Source of the DNA: Escherichia coli | GTDB taxonomy: Bacteria > Pseudomonadota > Gammaproteobacteria > Enterobacterales > Enterobacteriaceae | DNA: 64,000 bases | Assembly (NCBI RefSeq): GCF_003018255.1 | Contig: NZ_CP027440.1 | Reading direction: 5' to 3' (one strand) | Shown: positions 3,681 through 62,366 of the stretch, piece after piece | How the letters are laid out: each line of letters opens with the position of its first letter | Position numbering within the stretch: the stretch's first letter is position 1 | Program-made: the position numbers and the translations under genes | The notes under the pieces: generated by a model | What the model was told of the DNA's origin: nothing | The model's database searches: none | Seen by the model: only the letters and a program-made list of their open reading frames with translations

Positions 3681-4010
3681 ATGAAACGCTTTCCGCTATT
3701 TCTTTTATTCACCCTGCTCACGCTGTCCACCGTTCCGGCCCAGGCCGATATTATCGACGACACCATTGGCAATATTCAGCAGGCGATTAACGACGCTTAT
3801 AACCCTGACCGTGGGCGAGACTATGAAGATTCGCGCGACGACGGCTGGCAGCGTGAAGTGAGCGACGATCGGCGCAGACAATATGATGACCGCCGCCGCC
3901 AGTTTGAAGATCGCCGCAGGCAGCTGGACGATCGCCAGCGCCAGCTTGATCAGGAGCGTCGGCAACTGGAAGATGAAGAGCGGAGAATGGAAGATGAGTA
4001 TGGGCGTTGA
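3681..4010 (+). CDS. yjdP: small secreted protein with repeated DDRRRQ-type motifs
   Basis: 109-aa ORF with N-terminal signal peptide and charged repeats; position between rpiB and phnP. Confidence 0.7.
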   Translation: MKRFPLFLLFTLLTLSTVPAQADIIDDTIGNIQQAINDAYNPDRGRDYEDSRDDGWQREVSDDRRRQYDDRRRQFEDRRRQLDDRQRQLDQERRQLEDEERRMEDEYGR

Positions 4011-10357: not shown

Positions 10358-10941
10358 CAGCACACCTCCACATGAGTGGTTCGCGGGATAGCCAGCAGGC
10401 GCTCGCCGCAGGTCAGGATCAGGTCGATGCCGAGCGGGAACGGGTGCGGGCGCTCGGTAAGTTCGTGCAGAATGCACTCTGGCAGCTGCGGGGCGATCAT
10501 TCGTTCTTCGGCAATACCCGCGCCAGTAAGGCGCAGCATGCGCCCGCCGCTCAGGCTGACGACCTGTAAAATCAGCGTCGCGCCCGCTTCTGGCGCAACA
10601 GCGGTGCCGCTGGAAAGGGCGTTAAGCTGTTCGCTGGAAATCGCCTCATCCGTTACCGCGAAGGTCGCCAGTTCCGGCTGATTGACCAGCGGCGCGTTGG
10701 TATGAAAACGCAGGCTCTGGCTGACGATATCGTTACTTAATGGCGCAGAAAGCCACACCGGCGTGTCGTTATCGGCCAGCGTCAGCAGCACGCTGGTGGT
10801 GGCGATATTCAGCGGCTGCCAGCCGCGTTTGAGCTGATGCAGGGCGACAATCACGCCCGGCTCGCTCATGGCTTTTAACAGGCGACGAAAACTGTGCTGG
10901 GCATCCTGCACGGGAAGCATAAAAGCGGTTTCCAGGGTCAT
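10357..10941 (-). CDS. phnH: C-P lyase core complex subunit PhnH
   Basis: 194-aa ORF, phn synteny. Confidence 0.85.
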
Positions 10942-11390
10942 GCGTTATCTCCGCGAACCATCGTAAAGAAGTCGACCCGGCTGGCGTTTACTTCGGCCTG
11001 GCGTGCGGCAATGCGTGCCATACGGTCAGCGTTCAGCGGGGCAATAAGAGTTTCTGATAAGTTTTGAAAATGGCGGGTTTGCTGCATCAGCGCGTCAATC
11101 AGCGCGCAGCGTTCGGCGTGCTGTTTGTCGCGCCCCAGCACCCAGCTGTAGCCGAGCGTGCCGTCAGTCAGGCGTACGGCGGCGCGGGTGAGCGTGGCGT
11201 CGCCAGCAAAAAAGCGTTCGCCGGTGCCACCCATCCGCGCCTGAATCTGCACCAGGCCGGTTTCAGCGGCGCGGATTACTTCATAGTCGGCAGTGATGTT
11301 CAGCGCCTTCAGGCGGGCTGCCAGTTCAGCCGGTTGGCTGTGTGCCAGTATGGACATCCAGTGCTGGCGGGTCGCGGTATCTGCGTGCAT
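10938..11390 (-). CDS. phnG: C-P lyase core complex subunit PhnG
   Basis: 150-aa ORF, phn synteny. Confidence 0.85.
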
Positions 11391-12116
11391 TCAGTGCTCC
11401 ATAGTGAATTCAATCATGTCGGCGCGCGTCAGGCTGACGGAGTACTCCGCCGGGCTGCTTTCACCGTCACGGTGGTTAAGGGTGCGCACGCACAGCAGCG
11501 GCGACATATTCGGGATTTCAAGACGCTGGCACTCTTTGGCCTGGGCGCGGCGGGCGCTGATCCGCGTCTGGCTGCGGCGCAGCGCAATCCCCGTTTGCTC
11601 GCGCAGAAAATCGTGCAGCGAGCCGCTGTCGAAGCGTTGCAGCGTCGGCCAGAGGGTGAGGTCCGCAAAGTAGTGGTCGATTAAACAGAGCGCGACGCCG
11701 TTGACCCGGCGCAGGGTGCGCAGGTGGATAACGTTCTCGCCCTCGGTTATCCCCAGCGCGTCAGCGACGTGACCGGAGGCCGGGCGCAGCACAGACAGCA
11801 GTTTTTCGCTGGTGGGATGGCTGCCCTGATCCAGCAGGTTCTGGCTAAAACGCGCCTGGGCGTTGAGCGGGTAATCGAACGGGCGCATCAGCACCAGCAC
11901 GCCGACGCCCTGACGGCGCTGTACCCAGCCTTTTTCCACCAGTTGGTCGATGGCGCGGCGCAGGGTGTGGCGGTTCACCTCAAAGCGCGCCGCCAGTTGC
12001 TGCTCGGCGGGAAGATAGTCGCCGCAGCGGTAGTGTTGACGAAGCTCCTGCTCAAGTTTTGCGGCTATCTCCTGATAGCGTGTTGGGTAGCTGGTCGGAT
12101 GTGTAGACAAGTGCAT
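11391..12116 (-). CDS. phnF: GntR-family transcriptional regulator of the phn operon
   Basis: ORF track 11391..12125; start at MHLSTHPT (241 aa); N-terminal HTH. Confidence 0.85.
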   Translation of the reverse strand: MHLSTHPTSYPTRYQEIAAKLEQELRQHYRCGDYLPAEQQLAARFEVNRHTLRRAIDQLVEKGWVQRRQGVGVLVLMRPFDYPLNAQARFSQNLLDQGSHPTSEKLLSVLRPASGHVADALGITEGENVIHLRTLRRVNGVALCLIDHYFADLTLWPTLQRFDSGSLHDFLREQTGIALRRSQTRISARRAQAKECQRLEIPNMSPLLCVRTLNHRDGESSPAEYSVSLTRADMIEFTMEH

Positions 12117-12136
12117 AGATATCAATGCCTCGCTTA

Positions 12137-12916
12137 TCAGATAAAGTGCTTACGCAACCGTTGAGAGAGGAAATCCAGCAGGCTGACCGTGACGATAATC
12201 AGCACCATCAGGGCGCAGGTTTGCTGGAACTGGAAACCGCGAATCGCTTCCCACAGGGTGACGCCGATCCCGCCCGCGCCGACCATGCCAACAACGGTGG
12301 CCGAACGGACGTTGGATTCGAAGCGATAGAGGGAGTAGGAGATCAGCAGCGGCATCACCTGCGGCAGCACGCCGTAGAGGATCTCTTCGAGCTTGTTGGC
12401 ACCAGTGGCGCGAATACCTTCCACCGGGCCGGGTTCAATTGCTTCTACCGCTTCGGAAAGCAGTTTGGAGAGCACGCCGGTGGTGTGGATAAACAGCGCC
12501 AGTACGCCAGCGAACGGACCGAGACCGACGGCGACCACGAACAGCATGGCGAAGACCATCTCGTTAATGGCGCGGCAGGCGTCCATCAGGCGGCGAACGG
12601 GCTGATACACCCACCACGGCACCAGGTTTTCAGCGCTCATCAGGCCGAAGGGGATGGAGAGAACGACTGCCAGCGCGGTGCCCCAGACGGCGATTTGCAG
12701 CGTGACGGCCATTTCGGTGAGGTAATCCTGCCATTGGCTGAAATCGGGCGGGAAGAAGTCGGCGGCGAAGGTTGCCATGTTGCCGCCGTCTTTGATCAGC
12801 GTAAGCGGGGCCATTTCCGCGCCCTGCCACGAGACGACCAACACGGCGAGAACAATGGCCCAGCTCAGAAGCGAGAACCAGCTGCGCTTGGGTGGGGCGA
12901 TGGTGATGGTTTGCAT
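12137..12916 (-). CDS. phnE: phosphonate ABC transporter permease, uninterrupted reading frame
   Basis: ORF track 12137..12979, multi-TM protein; start taken at MQTITIAPP because the upstream extension runs into REP; no frameshift seen. Confidence 0.8.
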
Positions 12917-12929
12917 GTTTGGCTCCGGT

Positions 12930-13018
12930 CTGTAGGCCGGATAAGGTGCTTGCACCGCATCCGGCATCAACGTCTGCACATTGTCGGATGCGACGCCGGG
13001 GCGTCTTATCCGACCTAC
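12930..13018. repeat. REP pair between phnE and phnD
   Basis: tgtaggccggataaggtg...cggatgcgacgccggggcgtcttatccgacctac palindromic units. Confidence 0.7.
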
Positions 13019-13021
13019 GAT

Positions 13022-14038
13022 TTACTGCACCGCTTTACTCACCGAACTCATCGCGCTTAACGCGTTGTTCAGGCGGTCCAGGTCATCCAGTTGCGCCTGA
13101 ATGGCGCTGGTTTTTGCCAGCTTGTCCTGCTCATTCAGCCCTTTATTGCCTTTCACGCCCTGCATCTCTTTAAACAGCGCGAGCTGGCGAATCGGCACCA
13201 GTTGCAGGTCGCTGGAGGCGCGGAACGGGGCCCAGCCCAGGCGTTCCAGCACCGCTTTCTCTTCCGGCGTTTTGCCGTAGTTCATAAAGAAGTCGTAGAT
13301 CTTGTCTTTGGTGGTTTCGGACAGATTTTTGCGCCAGACGATCGGATCGCCTGGGATCAGCGGCGATTTCCAGATCACCTTCAGTTCTTTGAGCTTCTCC
13401 GGTGCGGAGGTTTTCAGCTTGTCGAGGTTTTCGGTGTTGTTGGTCGCCACATCCACCTGTTTGTTGGCGACGGCCAGCGCGTTGGTTTCATGCCCGGCGT
13501 TGACGGTGCGCTTGAAGTCGCTGGCGGAGATATTGTTTTTGGCGAAGACGTAGTAGCCGGGGACGAGGAAGCCAGAGGTGGAGTTAGGATCGCCATTGCC
13601 AAAGGTGAGATCTTTACGCTTCGCCAGCAGATCGTTCAGGTTGTTGATCGGACTGTCTTTGTTGACGATCAACACGCTCCAGTAACCTGGCGATCCATCC
13701 GCCGCGACCGTCTGGGCGAAGACCTGACCGTTGGCGCGATCCACCGCTTCCATCGCCGACAGATTGCCGTACCAGGCGATATCCACTTTGTTGAAGCGCA
13801 TTCCCTGGATAATGCCCGCGTAGTCCGGGGCAAAGAAGGCGTTGACCTTTACGCCCAGCTTCTTCTCCATATCCTGTAAGAACGGCGTCCATTGCGGTTT
13901 CAGGTTTTGCTGTGATTCCGTTGAAATAATGCCGAAATTCAGCGCCTTTTCCTGCTCTTCGGCGTGCGCCGGGCTTAACAGGGTGCTGAGGCTGAACATG
14001 CTGGTGAAGGCCAGCGAGGCAATTATCTTAGCGTTCAT
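13022..14038 (-). CDS. phnD: phosphonate ABC transporter periplasmic binding protein
   Basis: 338-aa ORF with signal peptide; phn synteny. Confidence 0.9.
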   Translation of the reverse strand: MNAKIIASLAFTSMFSLSTLLSPAHAEEQEKALNFGIISTESQQNLKPQWTPFLQDMEKKLGVKVNAFFAPDYAGIIQGMRFNKVDIAWYGNLSAMEAVDRANGQVFAQTVAADGSPGYWSVLIVNKDSPINNLNDLLAKRKDLTFGNGDPNSTSGFLVPGYYVFAKNNISASDFKRTVNAGHETNALAVANKQVDVATNNTENLDKLKTSAPEKLKELKVIWKSPLIPGDPIVWRKNLSETTKDKIYDFFMNYGKTPEEKAVLERLGWAPFRASSDLQLVPIRQLALFKEMQGVKGNKGLNEQDKLAKTSAIQAQLDDLDRLNNALSAMSSVSKAVQ

Positions 14039-34075: not shown

Positions 34076-34255
34076 TTAAATCTGACCGGAGTCTTTCGGC
34101 TGCGGCATTACAGCACCGCTTTTTATCTTTTCCTCGGCAGCTGCATCAATTTTATTTCGAAAATAATTGCGAATAATTTTATAACCACCGCTGACAAGCA
34201 ACAGACAACAAACCACCGTGCAGAAATACAGCAGGCAGACGTTTATATATGTCAT
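34076..34255 (-). CDS. hypothetical 59-aa single-pass membrane protein
   Basis: MTYINVCLLYFCTVVCCLLLVSGGYKIIRNYF... read from the minus strand, GAGG RBS; below the ORF-track length cutoff. Confidence 0.4.
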   Translation of the reverse strand: MTYINVCLLYFCTVVCCLLLVSGGYKIIRNYFRNKIDAAAEEKIKSGAVMPQPKDSGQI

Positions 34256-34312
34256 ATAAGCCTCACTCTTATTAACTGATGTTACAGCCGGATAAATTCC
34301 CGGCCGTCACGA

Positions 34313-36361
34313 TTATGCCGCAGGGGTATTAACCTCAAGGACAACGCTCTCAAAAGACACGCCATAAGTTGCCCCTTTGGTGACATCTGTCAGTGTCAGC
34401 GTATCTTTGGCAGGGGAAAGTGCATCTTTCACCATCTGGAATGCCTGGCCCGGAGTGCCATCCAGCACAGGCGTTACCTGGGCACTTCCCGCCGTAAACT
34501 TCAGGACAAGTGTATGCCACTGGTTATTGTAGGCTCCAAATGATCCCAGTTTCGTATTCCCCCCTGTTTTATGGTGCATCAGATTTAACTGGCCGCCTGT
34601 TGTCTGGAGATAATACGCCATCAGGAACGGTGTGCCTGTACCACTCATGGTTACACCTTCCGGGACCGTATCGGTGTGGAGGTAAATACCCAGAGCAAAC
34701 TGGCCTTCTTTTACTTCACCTGACAGACGGAATTTACAGGTCAACTGACCACCATGCTTCAGAAGTTCACCGGCTGCATCAGTTCCATGGGTAAGCGTCC
34801 AGGTTTTTCCGCTTTGTTTGGATACGGTCAACGCTTTACCTTCGTCCGTCAGCTGGATTGTACCATCTGTAATTTTCCAGCCCTGAGCCGGGGCTTCTCC
34901 TGCTGATGCTTTAAGTGAAAGCAGCGTACGGAGTGACGGGGATGTCGGATGGGGGGACTCACTGCCTCCTGGCTGACTACCTGTCGGCGCTTCCGGTTTC
35001 CCACCCGGCGCGGGCTGAGGCAGGGCTTCACCATCAGGGGCCACACCGGCAATAAATGCAGAGGTCAGACCTGCATATTTAAGAATTGCTGATGCAAAAC
35101 GATCTGAGACCAGAAAACGGCGCGCCCAGGAGCTAAAATGGGTTGCCCTGGATGCTGTTGTCCAGTTGCCATCTCCCCGTGATTCCGCACCATAATACCC
35201 GGCAGAAGCGATATCCGGGTCGTGCTCCGGCAGGTTGGTCGCGGTTTTATTACCGAACTCATCGTGCATCAGTGGAACAAAGTGAATGTTCTCGGAAGCC
35301 CGGTTTTTATATCCGCTATAAATGGTTTCATATGCCGCCGGGTTCTTCTCTTTCCAGTCATAGGTTGTGTCACCACATAACCACGGCACACTGTCTGATG
35401 AACCACCAATACACTGACCGGAGAAAGCACCAAGATCCGCACGGAATTTTTTCACCATCGCAGTAAACTGGGCACCATGCTGGGCCGGGGTCGCTTTAAG
35501 GTCTCCTTCCCCCTGAATCCATACGACAGATAACAGCACATTCTTTGGATTCGCCTCAAGTGCCGCTTTAGTTCGACTGACAAGATCCTGATACAGTGGG
35601 GTATCCACTCCCCAGCGTAGTGACGCCTCGGCTGCACCACTTGCCGGATCGAATGAGCCAACTGCGCCGGTTGTAAAAGCAGAGCCGCCACGGGCACAGG
35701 GAACCAGTAAAATCCCGGCATCAGCAGGAATCACCGGTAATACTTTTTTCGCAATATGAAGTCCCTGCCCCACACAACCATACTGCCCTTTTTTCAGGTC
35801 TGCTTTTGGATGGTTCAGCAGACTCATATTCTGAACATCATGAAGGCAGTGATCTGCTGGAATGATTTCATTGTATTTGCAGGGAATACCTCCGGGGGTT
35901 TGTGTATTCCTGCGTGCCAGCTGCATAATACGTGGATCAGGACGATCATAAGAATCCGGAAGGGGCAACCCTTCACCATAAGATGAAGCATTGGACTGGC
36001 CGGCTATAACAATCACGTAATACCAGGAAGGGGAGCTGGAAGCAGTTTCATTTCCTGACGGACGGGTATGTGTTTCAGCATTATCCCAGTCTGACGGTTC
36101 AGCAGTACCGGCAACATCAGCACTTAACGGAATGACCGCACCAATACCCGCTCCGGTAATTTCCACACTCGGATCACCGGATACTGGCCTTACCCACAGG
36201 CAATCCCGTGTATTAAAACTGATGAGACAGTCAGCAAATGTCATTCCTCCTTTTGTTTCGGCCGGAGGAAAGGGAGCCTCAAGAAATGCCGCTGTACCAC
36301 CGGAAACTTTAACAGTAAAGTTTCCGGGCATTGATGATAGTTGAACCCATTTGGACGTCAT
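34313..36361 (-). CDS. SGNH/SASA-type sialate O-acetylesterase-like protein with C-terminal beta-rich putative carbohydrate-binding domain (resembles prophage NanS-p family)
   Basis: 682-aa ORF; IAGQSNASSYG esterase signature, Pro-rich linker, about 200-aa C-terminal domain; no signal peptide. Confidence 0.55.
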   Translation of the reverse strand: MTSKWVQLSSMPGNFTVKVSGGTAAFLEAPFPPAETKGGMTFADCLISFNTRDCLWVRPVSGDPSVEITGAGIGAVIPLSADVAGTAEPSDWDNAETHTRPSGNETASSSPSWYYVIVIAGQSNASSYGEGLPLPDSYDRPDPRIMQLARRNTQTPGGIPCKYNEIIPADHCLHDVQNMSLLNHPKADLKKGQYGCVGQGLHIAKKVLPVIPADAGILLVPCARGGSAFTTGAVGSFDPASGAAEASLRWGVDTPLYQDLVSRTKAALEANPKNVLLSVVWIQGEGDLKATPAQHGAQFTAMVKKFRADLGAFSGQCIGGSSDSVPWLCGDTTYDWKEKNPAAYETIYSGYKNRASENIHFVPLMHDEFGNKTATNLPEHDPDIASAGYYGAESRGDGNWTTASRATHFSSWARRFLVSDRFASAILKYAGLTSAFIAGVAPDGEALPQPAPGGKPEAPTGSQPGGSESPHPTSPSLRTLLSLKASAGEAPAQGWKITDGTIQLTDEGKALTVSKQSGKTWTLTHGTDAAGELLKHGGQLTCKFRLSGEVKEGQFALGIYLHTDTVPEGVTMSGTGTPFLMAYYLQTTGGQLNLMHHKTGGNTKLGSFGAYNNQWHTLVLKFTAGSAQVTPVLDGTPGQAFQMVKDALSPAKDTLTLTDVTKGATYGVSFESVVLEVNTPAA

Positions 36362-53008: not shown

Positions 53009-53129
53009 ATTGCCTCCGTATAAAATATGAATATAAAATAAGCAGGCGGTCAGTGTACGCTTAACTGGTAAAGTCGGTGCCTGCCTCCGGGTGGATCATG
53101 TATGCGGGTTCGACCCCCGCCACTGACCG

Positions 53130-56043: not shown

Positions 56044-57698
56044 CCCCGATCAAATTCATGATATGCCTCATCGTCATCACGATAACCGCCCTCCATGGCC
56101 CGCGACCGCTCCGGCAGCGCCTGACAGGCTGATTCATCCAGGATGAAGCCCTCCATGTATGACGCCCGGTTTGCCATACAGAGCGCCACGGCAAAATCGC
56201 CATGGCGGCGGGCGTTCACAGCCGTTGCGTTCTGGTCCTTCGTACGCCCCTTGTCAATTTGCGGGATACCGTTCACCACCTTCACATGGCGCAAATCATC
56301 AAGCGTGGTCTGATGGCGGGCGACGAGGATATTCTGATCCTCAAACTCGGCCTTCAGTTTTGGCATCCACTCGCCGTACCACTTCGGCGATAACATCACG
56401 CAGTCGATGATGTCCGGGCCAAAGGCCAGCAGCGCGGCTTCGGCCAGATAGCCGCCGTTACCGGTGGCGTCGAACGCCGCACCGACCAGCGCCGGAACGC
56501 GGGTCAGGATGTACATCATCACCTGCTCCTGCTGGGCATACGGCAGGTTGCGCAGCTCCACGCGAAACACCTCGCGTTTTGCCAGGGATTCAGTGATTTC
56601 CAGCAGCACAAAGCAGGAGAGGTCACCGATGCGGGCAAAGTCTTCCCCGAAGCTGAAGCGGGAACGGGGATTTAACGCCTCTAAAAGCGGTTTTAAATGT
56701 TCTTCACACCAGGTTAAAACCTCCGATTCACGCAGCCATGCGGCACGGCTGATGAAGTCGTCCGGGGCTTCAAACGTCAGAATCGGGATGTCGCGGAGCA
56801 TCGCCATTTCAATAAGCGCGTGAGGAATATAGGCACCGCCGGATTTTTTCGGGATACAGCCGTATTCCTCGTCGGCATCCTCACGGGTCGGGGCGTTTTT
56901 GTAGAGATCATCACGCCACTTCTGCTCGCTTTCCGGTGACCATTCGCGGCCGGTGACATAACAGATACGACGGTACAGCCCGTCCGCAATGGCATCATCC
57001 AGGGTAATGCGGTGGACGCTGTAATCCTTGCGCCCCTCGCGGGCTTCCTGAATGTACTGATTAAACAGATTATCGACGCCGTTATGCGTGGAGATAATAC
57101 GCACGCGCGCGCCCCACATGGTGAGCGCCATTGCCGCCTTGAGAAGCTCATCCAGTGACTCGTGGAACGCGGCTTCATCAATCACCACATCCCCCTGAAG
57201 GCCGCGCAGGTTTGACGGACGGGAAGACAGTGCCTGAATTTTGAATCCACTGTTCGGAAAGCGGATCATGTAGGTCAGAATTTCTTCTTTTTTATCCCGA
57301 TCCCAGAAGGTCTGCTCATACACATCAGCATCTGCCAGCTGGTTAAAGGCACGGGAGAACAGTGCGCAGGCAGAAATATATTCCAGCGCCATCTCCTGCT
57401 TTGACCCCACATAAAACACATTGCGGCCACCACGCCGCTTAGGCTTTGCGGCGGTAATGACGTTACGCCCGGCTTCCGCCCAGGTAAGCCCGGTGCGGCG
57501 GGATTTTTCCGCGATGCAGACCTCGCTTTCATCCTCAAACCAGCGGGCCTGATAATCCAGAAATACCGGCATATCACCGGGCAAATCAAGGCTGTCCGGC
57601 ACATCCACGCCCAGCAGGGCTTTTTCACCGGCCAGATCAATTTTGCGGGTGGAGACGGTATTCGTCAGTAAGGGGGAGAGTTCTTCGGCGTTATTCAT
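56034..57698 (-). CDS. terminase large subunit (Mu gp28-like)
   Basis: 554-aa ORF; size and position upstream of portal. Confidence 0.75.
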   Translation of the reverse strand: MNNAEELSPLLTNTVSTRKIDLAGEKALLGVDVPDSLDLPGDMPVFLDYQARWFEDESEVCIAEKSRRTGLTWAEAGRNVITAAKPKRRGGRNVFYVGSKQEMALEYISACALFSRAFNQLADADVYEQTFWDRDKKEEILTYMIRFPNSGFKIQALSSRPSNLRGLQGDVVIDEAAFHESLDELLKAAMALTMWGARVRIISTHNGVDNLFNQYIQEAREGRKDYSVHRITLDDAIADGLYRRICYVTGREWSPESEQKWRDDLYKNAPTREDADEEYGCIPKKSGGAYIPHALIEMAMLRDIPILTFEAPDDFISRAAWLRESEVLTWCEEHLKPLLEALNPRSRFSFGEDFARIGDLSCFVLLEITESLAKREVFRVELRNLPYAQQEQVMMYILTRVPALVGAAFDATGNGGYLAEAALLAFGPDIIDCVMLSPKWYGEWMPKLKAEFEDQNILVARHQTTLDDLRHVKVVNGIPQIDKGRTKDQNATAVNARRHGDFAVALCMANRASYMEGFILDESACQALPERSRAMEGGYRDDDEAYHEFDRGCW

Positions 57699-58279
57699 CA
57701 GGCTTTACCCAACAGAATCCCCTTAATACGGGACTCAAGCTGTTCACTCATCCCGTCCACGCCGCGCAGCTCGTCGGTGACGGCGTTTGCCATCTCTTCA
57801 GCAAATGCAGCCCGGATTTCTTTTTCACGCTTAATGCTGCGCTCGGCGGCACTTTCCGCACGCTGTGCTGACAGGAGGATGTCCTTAATAAGACGCATAT
57901 CCACGTCGCTGTCACTGTTCAGGGATTCGGTCGCGGCACGCAGACGGCGGTACATCAGGGCGCGGGACATCTCCAGAATCAGCGCTGTGGTTTCACCGGT
58001 TGGCTTGTCTCCCAGTTCGGCCATCATGGCTTTTGTCTGCTCGCGTAAATCACGCAGGTTACGGGCAATCAGCTCATTACGGGAGGCTTCCCGGCTGATG
58101 GCCGCCGGTGAAAGCTGCTGCTCTTCCGGCAGGCCCGCCTCACGGATCAGACGGTTGATTTCCTCGCGTATCTGGACCTGCGTCAGACGTTTTTCACGCA
58201 GCATTTCCAGCAGTGGCTTACGGATGCTGTCGGGGAGCAAATCCACCTTGCGCACGCGTCCACGCGTCGGCTTGTCCAT
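57698..58279 (-). CDS. terminase small subunit-like / DNA-binding protein (Mu gp27-like)
   Basis: 193-aa charged helical ORF immediately upstream of the large terminase. Confidence 0.5.
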   Translation of the reverse strand: MDKPTRGRVRKVDLLPDSIRKPLLEMLREKRLTQVQIREEINRLIREAGLPEEQQLSPAAISREASRNELIARNLRDLREQTKAMMAELGDKPTGETTALILEMSRALMYRRLRAATESLNSDSDVDMRLIKDILLSAQRAESAAERSIKREKEIRAAFAEEMANAVTDELRGVDGMSEQLESRIKGILLGKA

Positions 58280-58281
58280 CG

Positions 58282-58572
58282 TTACCCCCTTGCGCGTGGT
58301 TTCTTCACACCCGGAACGCTGGCGCGACCTTCCGCCACATCCTGACCCCGGCCGGTCAGTTCGGCGATGAAATAACCGTTAACGAGCGTGCGCTTACGCA
58401 CCAGTCCCTGCTCGGCAAGCCAGGCAATGTGGGTGTGAACGGTGTCGCGGGACACGCGGTGGCCGTAATCATCCAGACAGTCCTGGAGCACGGATTCACC
58501 CAGTTCACCGTTGTAATCTGCCAGCGACCGCAGAATGACCAGACGCTGATCTTCAGTAATGAAATCACTCAT
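58282..58572 (-). CDS. hypothetical protein (Mu gp26-like)
   Basis: 96-aa ORF. Confidence 0.4.
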   Translation of the reverse strand: MSDFITEDQRLVILRSLADYNGELGESVLQDCLDDYGHRVSRDTVHTHIAWLAEQGLVRKRTLVNGYFIAELTGRGQDVAEGRASVPGVKKPRARG

Positions 58573-58877
58573 TGCGTTTTTTTCCTTACAGCCTGCTCCA
58601 GCAGCAGTTCGTTCTGATAGGAGACAGAGCGGAGCGTGGCGTTCGTGGTTTTCAGTTCACCCCGCAGGGTCACGATTTCCACATTCAGACGGTTGACCTC
58701 GGCTTCTGTCGGCAGTGACGACAGGCGGGTTTCCACCTTCTCAACGCGGTCGGAGAGTTTTTCAAAGGCCTCGCGGGGGACAAACGTTTTGCGCATCAGC
58801 GCCATGAATATCCCGCCAGCGGTTGCCGTCGCCGAAAGGATCGGCACAACATAATCTTTAACGATGCTGACCCACAT
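58569..58877 (-). CDS. membrane protein with one TM helix and coiled coil; candidate endolysin-release (releasin-like) lysis factor
   Basis: 102-aa ORF, N-terminal hydrophobic segment ILSATATAGGIFMALM, sits in the lysis-proximal block. Confidence 0.35.
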   Translation of the reverse strand: MWVSIVKDYVVPILSATATAGGIFMALMRKTFVPREAFEKLSDRVEKVETRLSSLPTEAEVNRLNVEIVTLRGELKTTNATLRSVSYQNELLLEQAVRKKTQ

Positions 58878-59085
58878 GACGGGCCTCCATGATGTTCTGG
58901 CAGTTCACACAACGGATGGCATCCGGCACAGCAACAAGACGTGCGGCGGGGATCTCTCCGCCACAGTCCGCGCAGACACGTCTGCCCGGAGCATCCATTG
59001 CCCGGCGCTTACGTGTCAGCCGGTTACAAAGGGCGCGTTCTGATCCCCGCTCCATCACAGCCTGAGCACGATCTGAATCATCCAT
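58858..59085 (-). CDS. TraR/DksA-family C4 zinc-finger protein
   Basis: CADCGGEIPAARLVAVPDAIRCVNC motif (CxxC-17-CxxC); start taken at MDDSDRAQ. Confidence 0.6.
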   Translation of the reverse strand: MDDSDRAQAVMERGSERALCNRLTRKRRAMDAPGRRVCADCGGEIPAARLVAVPDAIRCVNCQNIMEARHVGQHR

Positions 59086-59095
59086 ACCTTTTTCC

Positions 59096-59467
59096 TTACT
59101 TCGTCTTTCCTGCCGGAACAGCAGGCGTTCCGGCCATATCAGTAAATTCATGTTGTCGCCGCGCCTCCAGACGACGAATACTGGCCTTGTCCACGTTGCA
59201 GTTCTTGATCACCGCCAGCAGTTGCAGGTTGTAAGTGACCGATGCCCCAAACGTGAACGGCTCCGGCGCAGGAGGGACCAGGCAGTCAGCCAGCCATTCA
59301 GCGGGGATCGGCACCGGCTTCACAGGCACGTATTTCACAGACGGCCCGGCGCACCCGATCAGCCACATCATCAGGAACAGGGGCAGAGGCCGCAGGCACT
59401 GCCGCCAGCGACCGGCGGACAACGCTCTGCTGCCCCTCGCTGTGCTGAATGTTCTGTTGTTTTTCAT
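59096..59467 (-). CDS. o-spanin (Rz1-like) lipoprotein, out of frame within and beyond the Rz-like gene
   Basis: Lipobox LIGC followed by a proline-rich mature region; read from the alternative frame of ORF 59096..59662. Confidence 0.5.
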   Translation of the reverse strand: MKNNRTFSTARGSRALSAGRWRQCLRPLPLFLMMWLIGCAGPSVKYVPVKPVPIPAEWLADCLVPPAPEPFTFGASVTYNLQLLAVIKNCNVDKASIRRLEARRQHEFTDMAGTPAVPAGKTK

Positions 59468-59648
59468 TCGTGGCCGCCTCACTGATTTGTGAAATGAGTT
59501 GCAGGGTGTGCTGCTGATTTGCCAGCACCTGACGCGCCTCATCCCGCTCACGCACAAGCACCTGATTATTGTCTTCAAGGCGCTGCGTCTTCTGGTGCAT
59601 TCCCCATATAGCGGCAACCAGTACAGCGATAATCCCCAGCGCCGCCAT
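59298..59648 (-). CDS. i-spanin (Rz-like), start uncertain
   Basis: N-terminal TM helix then charged coiled coil; ORF track 59298..59819 overlaps lys, so an internal start was chosen. Confidence 0.5.
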   Translation of the reverse strand: MAALGIIAVLVAAIWGMHQKTQRLEDNNQVLVRERDEARQVLANQQHTLQLISQISEAATNEKQQNIQHSEGQQSVVRRSLAAVPAASAPVPDDVADRVRRAVCEIRACEAGADPR

Positions 59649-59760
59649 GCACGCCCCGGCAATCAGGGCCGGTAAGGCATTATTCACCGCAGCCACAGGA
59701 CACCCCGTAACAGCAGTACCGCACACAGCAGCGCTATCATGAGCGGTCGCCAGAAGCGGT

Positions 59761-60261
59761 TCAGACTTTCGGCAAGTCGTAGCGACATAACCATTCATCC
59801 GCCGAACGGCGGGCCTCAAGGCCGGGGAGTTTCACCCCCTTTGAATAAATCCAGCGGATATACTGCTTACAGGACGCGGGCATCTGCCCGGCATTGATCA
59901 GGCGCAGAAGCGTGGAGTTGCGAAAGTTCGTTTCACCGGCCCAGAAGATCCACGAAGCCAGCGCCACCGTCTGACCACGGGTAAGCGGCACCTGAACACG
60001 CCGATCAATGGCCGCAAAGGCCCATTTCATGTCCTTTTCCAGTAGTTCCAGGCATTCTTCATCTGTCAGGGTCATACCCGGTTTCACATCCGGGCCGGTA
60101 TGGCCGTAACAGATGGTGGGTGTACCGGAGGGATCGATATACGTGGAGTTTTCTTTCCCTTCCCAGTAACCGGTGTAATGCGTGGCAATCGTGAACGTCC
60201 CGGCACCGGCCAGAACAAGGGCAATCAGCTTTTTACGCAGTGGTGCGGGGAGTTTTGGCAT
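59761..60261 (-). CDS. SAR endolysin (T4-lysozyme-like, GH24)
   Basis: N-terminal Gly/Ala-rich weak TM (LIALVLAGAGTFTIA) then E...D...T catalytic spacing (YWEGKE..YIDPSGTPTICYG). Confidence 0.7.
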   Translation of the reverse strand: MPKLPAPLRKKLIALVLAGAGTFTIATHYTGYWEGKENSTYIDPSGTPTICYGHTGPDVKPGMTLTDEECLELLEKDMKWAFAAIDRRVQVPLTRGQTVALASWIFWAGETNFRNSTLLRLINAGQMPASCKQYIRWIYSKGVKLPGLEARRSADEWLCRYDLPKV

Positions 60262-60332
60262 TGTTACGCTGTCTCATGATGTTCTCTGAGTCAGCGTAAC
60301 GGTGAAGGAGAGGCGGCAGGCTTTGCGGAATA

Positions 60333-60758
60333 TCAGAAAAGTGGCGGTTGCGTTCTTGCCAGATGCAGACGGCGCTGTTCGCGTATGACGGTATAAATCT
60401 GGGTTTCTGACATCCGGTAATGGCGGCGAAGGGATTCAATTTTCTCGCCCCGGTCCCAGCGCGAAAATATCTCATTGTTTCGCAGCTCGGCAAAGAGAGA
60501 TTCCCCGACCGGCAGGTAATAACCCCGTCCGCCCATATAGGCTGCCTGAGCCGCAGCCACCTTGCGTGCCAGTTTACCGGCCAGTACCGGCTCAATCCCC
60601 TGACGCTGAAGTTCTGCGCCGGTGACTTCAACCAGTTCTGACAGGGTCCGCGGCCAGTTCTTTTTGAGAACATCATCAGGGATGTCATCAAGGCGGTCGA
60701 TAAGGGCGTGCAGTTGCTCACTGTCACCACCAAACATGCTCATCTGAGTTTCTGCCAT
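60333..60758 (-). CDS. Mor/C-family transcriptional activator
   Basis: C-terminal region GGRGYYLP...IYTVIREQRRL resembles Mu Mor (GGGQVYIP...VYKAIRRMRRL, recalled); immediately upstream of the lysis gene. Confidence 0.65.
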   Translation of the reverse strand: MAETQMSMFGGDSEQLHALIDRLDDIPDDVLKKNWPRTLSELVEVTGAELQRQGIEPVLAGKLARKVAAAQAAYMGGRGYYLPVGESLFAELRNNEIFSRWDRGEKIESLRRHYRMSETQIYTVIREQRRLHLARTQPPLF

Positions 60759-60827
60759 ATCAGCCTCCGGTTCTCGCGTTCCCGGTAAGTTTAAAATAAA
60801 AATCCCGCGTTGTGGCGGGATTTGGAG

Positions 60828-61337
60828 TTAACGGGGAAGTGATTTTTCATACTGCCTGCAAACGGCGTCATACCCCATCAGCGTGCGTTCGGGCATTCCC
60901 ATCGCGGCCAGCATTTTGCGGCGGTGCCATCGCTTGAGACGCTCCAGCACATCTGAGGCCAGGGCGGGGTGTTGCTCCAGCCACTGCCAGTTTGCCACAC
61001 CTTCGCCGCCGTTTTGCGCGGCCGTCTGCGATTTCACCCAGCGGTTAAGGGCGGTTTCCGCACCATCGGTGATAAAGCCCTGCCGGTGCATCACCTTCCA
61101 GATGGCGCGAATTTTGGCGGTCACCGTACCCGGTTTTAAGGCCCGGTTAACCGGGTTCTGACGCACTTTAAAACCGCGTTTTTTGAAAACATCCAGCACG
61201 CGGGATAACTCATCCGGTGACATATCCCGGCAGCTGGTTTTGCCGGTGGCTGCCAGCAGCGCGGATGTATAAGTCTCATCATCCAGGGCAAGCTCGCGCT
61301 TTGCCACATGAATGGCGGATATCAGTTTTCCTCTCAT
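60828..61337 (-). CDS. GemA-like (DUF1018) early regulatory protein
   Basis: 169-aa ORF with N-terminus LISAIHVAKRELALDDETY typical of the family; position before Mor/C as in Mu. Confidence 0.55.
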   Translation of the reverse strand: MRGKLISAIHVAKRELALDDETYTSALLAATGKTSCRDMSPDELSRVLDVFKKRGFKVRQNPVNRALKPGTVTAKIRAIWKVMHRQGFITDGAETALNRWVKSQTAAQNGGEGVANWQWLEQHPALASDVLERLKRWHRRKMLAAMGMPERTLMGYDAVCRQYEKSLPR

Positions 61338-61817: not shown

Positions 61818-62184
61818 TTGCTTTATCCTCCATACTGGACAAAATCATCTGTATTAATGTCGGGCGTGGAGATATACGCATTTCATTAAGCGTCTGAAGG
61901 GCAGCAACAGCTGCCTGTTTATCGGTGCCTTTGGCAATTTCCGCAAGAGAATGCACAATCCATAACGGACTTAACGCCACGACTGAATCCAGAATCATGT
62001 CATCCATAATAATTTCTGACACATCCCGCTTATCACATTCCTTATCCATAAAAGAAACGATTTTTTCCACATCTTCCGGTTTCATGCCTCCGGCGATAAG
62101 AAATTTGCGATACTCATAAGACGATCTTAATTCAATACTCATATTCATCTCCTGTAACTCTGACAAGGACGTGATTTTTCTCAT
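61810..62184 (-). CDS. hypothetical early-region protein
   Basis: 124-aa ORF, overlapping start/stop with neighbours. Confidence 0.4.
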   Translation of the reverse strand: MRKITSLSELQEMNMSIELRSSYEYRKFLIAGGMKPEDVEKIVSFMDKECDKRDVSEIIMDDMILDSVVALSPLWIVHSLAEIAKGTDKQAAVAALQTLNEMRISPRPTLIQMILSSMEDKANE

Positions 62185-62366
62185 TTATGTTTTCCAGTAA
62201 TACGGATATATATGTCGATAAGAAGATTCATAATAAACAGGAAGAGCGACATCCTGATAAAGAACCAAATATCTGGCATCATGGACAGGTTTCCTGTAAT
62301 CGCAAATATAACCCCCCCCCCCAACACCGGAACGAAAATTGCGAAAAATACAAGTCTCTTTATCAT
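62181..62366 (-). CDS. hypothetical small membrane protein
   Basis: 61-aa ORF with two hydrophobic segments. Confidence 0.35.
   Translation of the reverse strand: MIKRLVFFAIFVPVLGGGVIFAITGNLSMMPDIWFFIRMSLFLFIMNLLIDIYIRITGKHK

Follow-up and report, generated by a model that had tools for sequence, protein, structure and literature searches.

A Mu-like and probably holin-independent lysis cassette in an Sp18-type prophage of Escherichia coli

The late operon of an Sp18-type prophage

The DNA analysed here is a stretch of 64,000 nucleotides from Escherichia coli (contig NZ_CP027440.1), which is called the window in the following. It carries a Mu-like prophage of the Sp18 type that is integrated in ydeE. 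The start of the prophage late operon occupies positions 58,282-60,758 (minus strand) and follows genes 21-27 of phage Mu gene by gene, in synteny as well as in homology (Table 1). An initial annotation, made from the sequence without database searches, had described a lysis cassette consisting of an endolysin gene, an Rz-like gene with an out-of-frame Rz1-like gene, and a gene for a 102-aa membrane protein. All these parts were found on the minus strand where they had been placed; the list was incomplete in that two further genes lie inside the cassette, one for a zinc-finger protein and one small, unannotated open reading frame (ORF). From the endolysin gene through the TerL gene, the genes abut or overlap, and no convincing terminator was found between them. 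A "tRNA-OTHER" annotated by RefSeq within the prophage was not reproduced by ARAGORN.

Table 1. Features of the lysis region, in the direction of transcription.
Feature	Position in the window	Strand	Evidence
Mor/C-family late transcription activator, orthologue of Mu C (gp21)	60333..60758	-	PF08765 (E 3e-32); phrog_532 (E 3e-45)
Intergenic region, putative (inferred) C-dependent late promoter, Plys-like	60262..60332	-	position of Mu Plys
GH24 muramidase with SAR-type N-terminal domain (endolysin)	59761..60261	-	PF00959 (E 8e-37)
Small unannotated ORF (34-36 aa/codons)	59684..59794	-	conservation, coding-type substitution pattern
i-Spanin (Rz-like), one N-terminal TMD	59298..59696	-	phrog_214 (E 6e-32)
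o-Spanin (Rz1/LysC-like outer-membrane lipoprotein), +1 frame	59096..59467	-	PF23793 LysC (E 5e-16); phrog_3001 (E 4e-42)
TraR/DksA C4 zinc-finger protein, slot of Mu gp24	58858..59085	-	PF01258 (E 8e-12); phrog_54 (E 1e-19)
DUF2730 protein (102 aa), homologue of the Mu releasin gp25	58569..58877	-	PF10805 (71.4 bits; cutoff 24.9)
gp26-like winged-helix protein, downstream boundary of the cassette	58282..58572	-	62.5% identity to Mu gp26
gp27, TerS, after the gp26-like gene	57698-58279		PF11985 match

The activator gene is located directly upstream of the endolysin gene, as in Mu, and its product shares 39% identity with Mu C (E 3e-34) versus 27% with Mu Mor. In the interval between the two genes, ATATTCCGCAAAGCCTGCCGCC is similar to ATAATCCCGCACCTGCCACC of Mu, and blocks of this interval are kept in the Salmonella and Citrobacter relatives; a sigma-70 consensus promoter was not found in it.

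The Mu cassette (AF083977; PMC9239132) has the same order: C, endolysin, overlapped spanins, a small zinc-finger-like gene, DUF2730, gp26 and TerS. Alignment with the Mu lysis proteins, which had been proposed earlier as a check, revealed significant similarity for C, gp22, gp23, gp23.1, gp25 and gp26, and every component reported here as homologous has 27-62% identity to its Mu counterpart. The similarity in the gp24 slot is not significant (E 0.22): both proteins possess a CxxC...CxxC pattern, but only the one encoded here is recognisable as a TraR/DksA zinc finger. Furthermore, unlike Mu, the prophage has no Mor/middle operon and no homologues of gp19 and gp20, whereas Mu has no counterpart of the small ORF found here between the endolysin and Rz genes.

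The endolysin and the spanins

The endolysin is homologous to the proven SAR endolysins Mu gp22 (39% identity) and R21 (37% identity) over its whole length, N-terminus included. Its catalytic triad, as read from the sequence, is E34-x8-D43-x5-T49. The closest solved structures are those of phage 21 R21 (PDB 3HDE/3HDF) and DLP12 RrrD (4ZPU), which have the same triad spacing (E35 versus E34 here); the match to R21 (3HDE, E 2e-24) is full-length and takes in the N-terminal SAR region. The protein starts with MPKLPAPLRKK (basic residues K3, R9, K10 and K11; four versus three in Mu), followed by a 22-residue uncharged, weakly hydrophobic stretch, 50% of which is Gly, Ala, Ser or Thr. The E-x8-D-x5-T muramidase, the basic N-terminus and the Gly/Ala-rich hydrophobic stretch are common to Mu and the prophage, although the SAR domain has two Gly here versus a run of six in Mu. 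Composition and geometry as in Mu gp22 and R21 are compatible with a SAR-like N-terminus, which the initial annotation had described, and no sign of a cytoplasmic or cleaved N-terminus was seen in the sequence.

The Rz-like protein has 27% identity to Mu gp23 (E 1e-6), and for the Rz1-like protein and Mu gp23.1 the identity is 42% (E 1e-13). The Rz1-like protein has the lipobox LIGC with Cys39 and a mature part of 85 aa with 13% Pro. The earlier description of an Rz gene with an out-of-frame gene for a Pro-rich Rz1 lipoprotein therefore stands, but the two genes are overlapped rather than embedded, as Rz1 continues for 202 nt after the Rz stop codon; Mu gp23.1 likewise extends beyond the gp23 stop. 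The RefSeq starts of both genes look wrong. The most likely start of Rz is GTG 59696 (alternatives, 59726 [RefSeq], 59687 and 59648): this codon lines up with the ATG start of Rz in Salmonella, Citrobacter and Serratia, and the region upstream of it evolves non-conservatively in the Rz frame (pN/pS 2.1). For Rz1, the ATG start ("MKNN") is kept in Citrobacter. The corrected starts are relevant to annotation pipelines.

The DUF2730 protein is a homologue of the Mu releasin

In phage Mu, release of the endolysin gp22 requires gp25, an experimentally defined releasin (Chamblee 2022, PMC9239132). Other SAR endolysins are released by gp25 as well, and none of the Mu proteins acts like a holin (PMC9239132). 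The 102-aa DUF2730 protein of the prophage is 34% identical to gp25 over 93 aa (BLASTP, E 5e-18), and its tblastn match in the Mu genome (AF083977) is the CDS annotated as "releasin". The DUF2730 family motifs (RK junction, LPT, LRGE, LLLEQ) were found, and the protein belongs to the type-I DUF2730 subgroup, which is paired with Mu-type SAR muramidases. The gene has a strong GGAGG ribosome-binding site, overlaps its neighbours and is the fourth annotated gene downstream of the endolysin gene (the fifth, if the small ORF is counted).

The protein possesses a single hydrophobic segment (residues 9-27) followed by RK, and positive-inside reasoning predicts an N-out/C-in topology with a cytoplasmic C-terminus. 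This predicted orientation of the TMD and the R/K junction pair are common to Mu and the prophage, as is the lack of a recognisable holin family. The AF2 model (pLDDT 86.7) is all-helical, with helices 2-31, 35-54 and 58-101, the last of which has a clean a/d heptad; a Foldseek comparison of the model with the PDB gave no meaningful match. The earlier proposal that this single-TM coiled-coil protein is a candidate release factor gains from its homology to gp25 and from its occupying the same slot in a cassette that matches gene for gene. Nevertheless, the endolysin/DUF2730 pair is only 34-39% identical to Mu gp22/gp25, and the cytoplasmic domain of the DUF2730 protein has a net charge of +3 and no His, in contrast to -1 and two His in Mu gp25.

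Search for a holin and the probable mode of lysis

Canonical holins have three TMDs (class I), two TMDs (class II/pinholins), or one TMD and a large periplasmic domain (class III). We used as queries 69 ORFs, taken from all six frames of the whole prophage, that contain a hydrophobic segment; NZ_CP028695, which is near-identical, supplied the early prophage region beyond the window. Holin families were absent from the Pfam matches of these ORFs (E<=0.05) and from the best 25 of their 43 PHROG families (which reach down to E 3.6e-10), and the individual membrane-protein candidates had no holin match in Pfam or PHROG even at E<=1. No candidate is a late, endolysin-adjacent gene with a holin-family match or holin topology: the sole two-TMD candidate is the product of an early, dispensable accessory gene, and the small ORF inside the cassette encodes a single TMD without a periplasmic domain. 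The profile search of the prophage ORFs thus agrees with the earlier statement that no class I or class II holin is evident, and it revealed no holin nearby. A novel holin may lie beyond the reach of profile searches, for which Lcc6 of LambdaSo is a precedent. In phage 21, the two-TMD pinholin S21, encoded just upstream, triggers the endolysin, whereas here there is no such gene but a DUF2730 gene.

What can be observed at this locus is homology and synteny, together with the domain features, the tight packing of the operon and the lack of holin-family matches. Judged by its sequence, the cassette appears to be built like that of Mu, with a membrane-tethered lysozyme, two spanins, a releasin helper and no recognisable holin, which is essentially known biology. 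The Mu-style, holin-independent lysis suggested in the initial annotation is supported by the gp25 homology, the cassette synteny and the lack of a holin match, and we consider it probable (roughly 75%) that the lysis module of the Sp18-type prophage acts as in phage Mu. Two elements of this proposal, the releasin dependence of endolysin release and the true lack of a hole-forming or depolarising factor, are taken over by analogy from the experiments with Mu. In the proposed sequence of events, the late transcript would be switched on by the C-type activator. The muramidase would be exported via Sec and then remain inactive, its weakly hydrophobic SAR domain tethering it to the inner membrane, where the basic cluster on the cytoplasmic side (RKK) would help to keep it. 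The DUF2730 protein would be anchored N-out/C-in with a helical cytoplasmic domain. The freed muramidase would refold and degrade murein, after which the Rz/Rz1 spanin complex would fuse inner and outer membranes. Timing would be achieved without a holin.

A conserved small ORF inside the cassette

The small ORF between the endolysin and Rz genes is the only new item in this cassette, the rest being essentially known biology. Its predicted product has a basic N-terminal segment and one strongly hydrophobic C-terminal TMD (KD19 2.3). The ORF has the same length throughout 36 related loci, which represent 18 unique sequences. Length and frame are kept in relatives from at least four named genera (Escherichia/Shigella, Salmonella, Citrobacter and Serratia), even where endolysin identity is as low as 55%, and the ORF is also present in a relative whose endolysin is 68% identical. 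Substitutions are of the coding type, with pN/pS 0.39 in its own frame versus 2.12 and 0.97 in the other two. Variable columns amount to 15 of 20 at third codon positions versus 19 of 41 at positions 1 and 2, a marginal difference (p 0.054). The ORF overlaps both the 3' end of the endolysin gene and the start of Rz, and a part of its conservation is therefore forced by these overlaps. One relative (L028) lacks the ORF owing to a deletion.

No Pfam or PHROG family matched the small ORF. An exact look-up retrieved only "Uncharacterised protein" entries, in some Shigella sonnei records, and a degenerate DNA pattern had a single match among the GTDB species genomes, in Citrobacter braakii. A relationship to Mu gp19/gp20 was rejected, as a local alignment with gp19 (raw score 36) was lost with the family HMM (hmmsearch against 217 segments of the Mu region, best E 0.19). 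The distant DUF2730 phages Klebsiella Kp4866-3 and Shewanella MuM16-2 proved uninformative on this point, for they have soluble endolysins and other neighbours. To our knowledge, the 34-36-aa peptide is smaller than any known holin.

Tiny single-pass proteins of this kind are present in other temperate phages with SAR endolysins, namely Lcc6 of LambdaSo (65 aa; bioRxiv 10.1101/2024.01.23.576932) and gp20 of Mu (39 aa), neither of which has sequence similarity to the small ORF. Lcc6 is required for lysis (bioRxiv 10.1101/2024.01.23.576932), whereas Mu gp20 is the product of a dispensable middle gene. The TMD of Lcc6 is N-terminal and its gene lies far from the cassette, in contrast to the C-terminal TMD and the position inside the cassette of the ORF described here.

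The small ORF could be an extra lysis regulator. We put forward, as a tentative suggestion, that it is a fifth component of releasin-type cassettes in enterobacterial Mu-like prophages, acting on the membrane as a minimal trigger, or else as a timer of an "anti-releasin" kind. As a conserved gene for a TMD peptide lies inside the cassette, the designation "holin-less" is not fully secure. The peptide may even be the depolarising or hole-forming trigger, or its timer or antagonist, with or instead of the DUF2730 protein. The conserved length and frame, the coding-type substitutions, the strong hydrophobicity and the classical lysis-gene position overlapping both neighbours fit such a role; single-TMD small proteins can be essential lysis factors, as in the case of Lcc6, and membrane depolarisation is known to release SAR endolysins (PMC9239132). 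However, the peptide resembles neither a holin nor any other family, Mu lyses without such a gene, and the ORF is missing from the relative with the deletion. In addition, the codon-position test is marginal, the overlaps account for some of the conservation, and the ORF may serve merely for translational coupling of Rz. We regard a cassette that is not holin-less as unlikely.

Other explanations

Another possibility is that the SAR endolysin escapes spontaneously, timed by accumulation alone, and that the DUF2730 protein has some other role, e.g., in head assembly or packaging near gp26/gp27, which may also be the case in Mu-like phages with soluble endolysins. Indeed, its gene lies at the boundary to the packaging genes, its cytoplasmic domain is not acidic, unlike that of Mu gp25, and most characterised SAR endolysins free themselves at some rate (PMC9239132). 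In other Mu-like phages, DUF2730 proteins are encoded together with non-SAR endolysins as well (PMC9239132), and we found them beside non-SAR/soluble endolysins in two of the loci compared (L047 and L048), so that membership of this family alone is no proof of releasin activity. Nor can releasin dependence be read from the sequence, since R21 also has adjacent basic residues and yet needs no releasin. Nevertheless, the protein of the prophage is significantly similar to gp25 and of type I, the subgroup paired with Mu-type SAR muramidases; the endolysin has more N-terminal basic residues than gp22, which should stabilise its anchoring; and Mu without gp25 lyses late, at ~3 h (PMC9239132). This explanation appears quite improbable.

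It is most improbable that another part of the prophage encodes a holin, although lysis factors can be located far from the cassette (Lcc6), the 61-aa (62181-62366), 98-aa and DUF1378 (34076-34255) proteins have no known function, and the 61-aa protein has a class-II-like topology with two predicted TMDs and short charged termini (the other two have a single TMD): none of the three matches a holin family at E<=1; the 61-aa and 98-aa genes, rejected as obligate holin genes, are missing from the Mu-like element in LC727895 with its 99.1% identical cassette and, as part of the early operon, precede a terminator-like hairpin, whereas confirmed holins are late genes; and the DUF1378 gene lies in a lambdoid-type accessory module near com/mom, with no holin after it.

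Distribution and significance

The prophage family occurs in 230 of the 5,426 complete E. coli genomes, with O157:H7 among its hosts, and relatives in Salmonella, Citrobacter and Serratia carry the design too. The releasin-type, apparently holin-less design is thus not peculiar to Mu and is carried here in a diverged form (34-39% identity). The divergent homologue constrains models of the releasin mechanism, as it retains neither of the two His of gp25 and has a cytoplasmic domain that is not acidic. If the DUF2730 protein is a working releasin, these features argue against the serine-protease and acidic-microenvironment ideas. As a candidate for the timing element that is missing, the small ORF is concrete and can be tested cheaply; an "anti-releasin" timer, if the suggestion is true, would give the temporal control that is otherwise missing in a holin-less system.

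A Mu-type lysis cassette

The endolysin of phage Mu, gp22, is of the SAR type, with gp23/gp23.1 as the spanins (Chamblee et al., PMC9239132). No membrane protein of Mu acts as a holin when tested for triggering by DNP, and timely release of gp22 requires gp25, hence the name "releasin" (PMC9239132). The order of the genes in the curated Mu record AF083977 (C, Plys, gp22 SAR endolysin, gp23 i-spanin, gp23.1 o-spanin, gp24, gp25 "releasin", gp26, gp27 TerS) is also that of the window, and the endolysin, Rz, Rz1 and 102-aa proteins all match their Mu counterparts in pairwise BLASTP (27-42% identity). In the place of gp24 lies a gene for a TraR/DksA zinc finger; the pattern CxxC...CxxC occurs in Mu gp24, but the two proteins are not significantly similar. 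From the endolysin through the large terminase the genes abut or overlap, and no convincing terminator was found between these two genes. The homology of this cassette to that of Mu is close to certain. The features listed in the initial annotation of positions 58569-60261 were all recovered where it had placed them.

Components of the lysis cassette, neighboring membrane proteins and their phage Mu counterparts (identities from pairwise BLASTP)
Feature	Position	Strand	Profile match or other detail	Mu counterpart
C orthologue				C, 39%, E 3e-34
GH24 phage lysozyme (endolysin), 166 aa	59761-60261	-	PF00959 E 8e-37; phrog_7 E 5e-51	gp22, 39%, E 3e-34
Unannotated single-TMD peptide ORF, 34-36 codons	59684-59794	-	translation MVMSLRLAESLNRFWRPLMIALLCAVLLLRGVLWLR	
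i-spanin, Rz-like	ends 59298	-	phrog_214 E 6e-32	gp23, 27%, E 1e-6
o-spanin, Rz1/LysC-like lipoprotein, +1 frame	59096-59467	-	PF23793 E 5e-16; phrog_3001 E 4e-42	gp23.1, 42%, E 1e-13
DUF2730 protein, 102 aa	58569-58877	-	71 bits vs cutoff 25	gp25, 34%, E 5e-17
gp26-like protein				gp26, 62.5%, E 3e-41
Two-TMD protein, 61 aa	62181-62366	-	phrog_19804; early operon	
One-TMD protein, 98 aa	61334-61630	-	phrog_17269; early operon	

The endolysin possesses the catalytic triad E34-x8-D43-x5-T49. The proposal that it carries a SAR-type N-terminal segment is in line with a basic N-terminus (MPKLPAPLRKK) followed by 22 uncharged residues (LIALVLAGAGTFTIATHYTGYW), half of which are Gly, Ala, Ser or Thr; this stretch has a lower mean hydropathy than the SAR domains proven for Mu gp22 and R21. 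The nearest solved structures are the SAR endolysin R21 (3HDE/3HDF, E 2e-24) and RrrD, and the alignment with R21 covers the N-terminal segment as well. The 71 nt upstream of the gene contain no sigma-70 consensus and appear to resemble the C-binding part of Mu Plys.

The Rz-like gene and the out-of-frame, Pro-rich Rz1-like lipoprotein predicted downstream were confirmed by profile matches and a lipobox (LIGC, Cys39 numbered from ATG 59467; mature part 85 aa, 13% Pro). The spanin pair is "overlapped", i.e., Rz1 begins within Rz and ends 202 nt beyond the Rz stop, exactly the layout of the Mu spanins. The RefSeq start sites of both genes (positions 15033-15663 in L003, the near-identical RefSeq record NZ_CP028695) look wrong. 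For Rz, named "endopeptidase", PGAP chose GTG 59726 (59298-59726); the frame evolves non-conservatively 5' of GTG 59696, and this latter codon lines up with the ATG at which Rz begins in Salmonella, Citrobacter and Serratia. The RefSeq start of Rz1 (lysC), GTG 59338, lies five codons past the lipobox Cys, so that the lipoprotein signal would be lost, whereas the alternative ATG 59467 ("MKNN") has GAGG 9 nt upstream and is kept in Citrobacter.

The prophage and its setting

The cassette belongs to a Mu-like prophage of ~38.8 kb, transcribed from the minus strand, which reaches from ~32.25 kb past the right end of the window and is inserted in ydeE (MFS transporter), splitting this gene into two pseudogene halves. 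The window differs from the chromosome of E. coli strain 107 (NZ_CP028695) by 7 mismatches in 19.7 kb, and the repressor, transposase and remaining early region, located outside the window, were taken from this near-identical record. The prophage carries c/ner/A/B/gam/gemA early genes, Mu-type head and tail genes, a Gin-type invertible tail-fibre segment and com/mom. The C orthologue is present, but a separate Mor, a middle operon and homologues of gp18-20 are not; a strong terminator-like hairpin followed by a T-run (60823-60800) is located within 60759-60828 (minus strand), between gemA and the single Mor/C-family gene. Window positions 1-32200 are host chromosome (mar operon, eamA, lsr operon, a frameshifted autotransporter, truncated hipA). 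RefSeq places a "tRNA-OTHER" at ~53049-53128 (plus strand) between head-morphogenesis genes; ARAGORN found no tRNA or tmRNA in the whole window, so this annotation was not reproduced.

The same lysis region is present in 230 of 5,426 complete E. coli genomes, O157:H7 among them; two Stx-phage records contain it as well, under the label "inserted Bacteriophage Mu-like phage". O157 Sakai has one Mu-like prophage, Sp18, called apparently intact (PMC2669165); we infer from the O157:H7 matches, rather than from an alignment with Sakai, that our prophage is of the Sp18 type.

Search for a holin

All six-frame ORFs of 30-260 aa with a hydrophobic 19-mer (69 in all, those of the early region beyond the window among them) were each scanned against Pfam and PHROGs. 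Endolysin and spanin were the only lysis families matched, and no holin family reached E<=0.05 in Pfam or was among the 25 best-scoring of 43 PHROG families; nor did the genuine small membrane-protein genes, scanned singly at E<=1, match a holin. Within this scope, the earlier statement that no class I or II holin is evident holds. The 61-aa and 98-aa membrane proteins are encoded upstream of the hairpin at 60823-60800. Both are replaced by unrelated soluble ORFs in the Mu-like element of LC727895, which elsewhere is nearly identical and has a cassette of 99.1% identity, and therefore they cannot be obligatory lysis partners. The DUF1378 protein (59 aa, 34076-34255) was rejected as a holin, as it is part of a block of lambdoid/Stx-phage late-region type (DUF6645, 682 aa; DUF1378; DUF826) at ~34076-36361 on the minus strand (10651-13187 of locus L004). 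This block, located between the Gin-type invertase and com/mom and having a lower GC content (0.46-0.50), looks like an acquired accessory (moron) module.

The DUF2730 protein as a candidate releasin

The 102-aa protein had been proposed as a release factor, and it is indeed a gp25 homologue in the same gene order. Describing it as a single-TM coiled-coil protein is reasonable. It has one hydrophobic segment (residues 9-27, followed by RK), and an AF2 model built from 51 family members consists of helices only (2-31, 35-54 and 58-101; mean pLDDT 86.7). In the last helix, 9 of 11 successive a/d positions read from the sequence are hydrophobic (V61, L64, I68, L71, L75, T78, L82, V85, N89, L92, A96). 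Its gene is preceded by the ribosome-binding site GGAGG, and the family motifs (junction MRKTF, LPT, LRGE, LLLEQ) are retained. Of the three types of DUF2730 proteins, only type I has gp25-like sequence (PMC9239132); judged by this criterion of Chamblee et al., the protein is type I.

The Mu-style, holin-independent lysis is the best-supported account of how this cassette may work, and we estimate the probability that the DUF2730 protein acts as a releasin and no holin controls timing at roughly 75%. Unrelated SAR endolysins are also helped in release by gp25 (PMC9239132). Three points argue against a simple carry-over from Mu. First, the cytoplasmic domain has a net charge of +3, no His and 5 Ser, whereas that of Mu gp25 has a net charge of -1, two His and 9 Ser; the two His are replaced by Asn and Tyr. 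Second, K6 and K7 are what makes gp22 dependent on gp25 (PMC9239132), and R21 has adjacent basic residues yet needs no releasin. Third, DUF2730 proteins are also found with endolysins without SAR domains (PMC9239132), in agreement with their location beside soluble lysozymes in Klebsiella Kp4866-3 and Shewanella MuM16-2. The cassette is a diverged example of the kind of system described in 2022, and the initial annotation's reading of it by analogy with holin-independent Mu lysis is supported. Should its DUF2730 protein indeed work as a releasin, the lack of His and of an acidic cytoplasmic domain would speak against the protease and acidic-microenvironment models discussed for gp25.

A conserved small ORF between endolysin and Rz

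A small ORF lies between the stop of the endolysin (59761) and the transmembrane segment of Rz, overlapping both the 3' end of the endolysin gene and the start of Rz. The encoded peptide is basic in its N-terminal part and has a single, strongly hydrophobic TMD in its C-terminal part. The ORF is probably a real gene. In 36 related loci (18 distinct sequences in two clades with endolysins ~82% identical and different Rz N-termini), the distance from the endolysin stop to its stop is always exactly 80 nt, without indel or stop codon. The ORF further occurs in Citrobacter braakii and in two other relatives, one from Serratia and one metagenomic (endolysins 55% and 68% identical, respectively), and the coding-type pattern spans Escherichia/Shigella, Salmonella, Citrobacter and Serratia relatives. 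In the part overlapping neither neighbor, pN/pS (summed Nei-Gojobori) is 0.39 in this frame, versus 2.12 in the upstream Rz extension and 0.97 in the endolysin frame, which has stops. Variable columns (15 of 20 third positions vs 19 of 41 first and second positions; Fisher p 0.054, tree-independent) are suggestive of coding but marginal. One relative lacks the internal ATG, while the WRP motif upstream of it is kept via synonymous changes; the likely product is therefore the 34-36-aa form starting within the endolysin 3' end.

Pfam and PHROG profile scans at E<=1 gave no family match, Mu has no counterpart, and a relationship to Mu gp19 or gp20 was rejected for lack of similarity; its only annotation, in a small number of Shigella sonnei records, is "Uncharacterised protein". 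In the relative L028 (IMG/VR UViG_2526164665_000023), a deletion at ~3900-3990 fuses the 3' end of the endolysin gene directly to the start of Rz (…GTGAATAAC…), with loss of the ORF; either this prophage has decayed, or it is a natural test of whether the ORF is dispensable. The peptide could regulate or trigger lysis, or the ORF could merely serve for coupling of Rz. Lcc6 of Shewanella LambdaSo is a precedent for a small single-TMD protein being essential to lysis yet overlooked by annotation (bioRxiv 10.1101/2024.01.23.576932). This small conserved ORF is the sole part of the cassette that could alter the picture.
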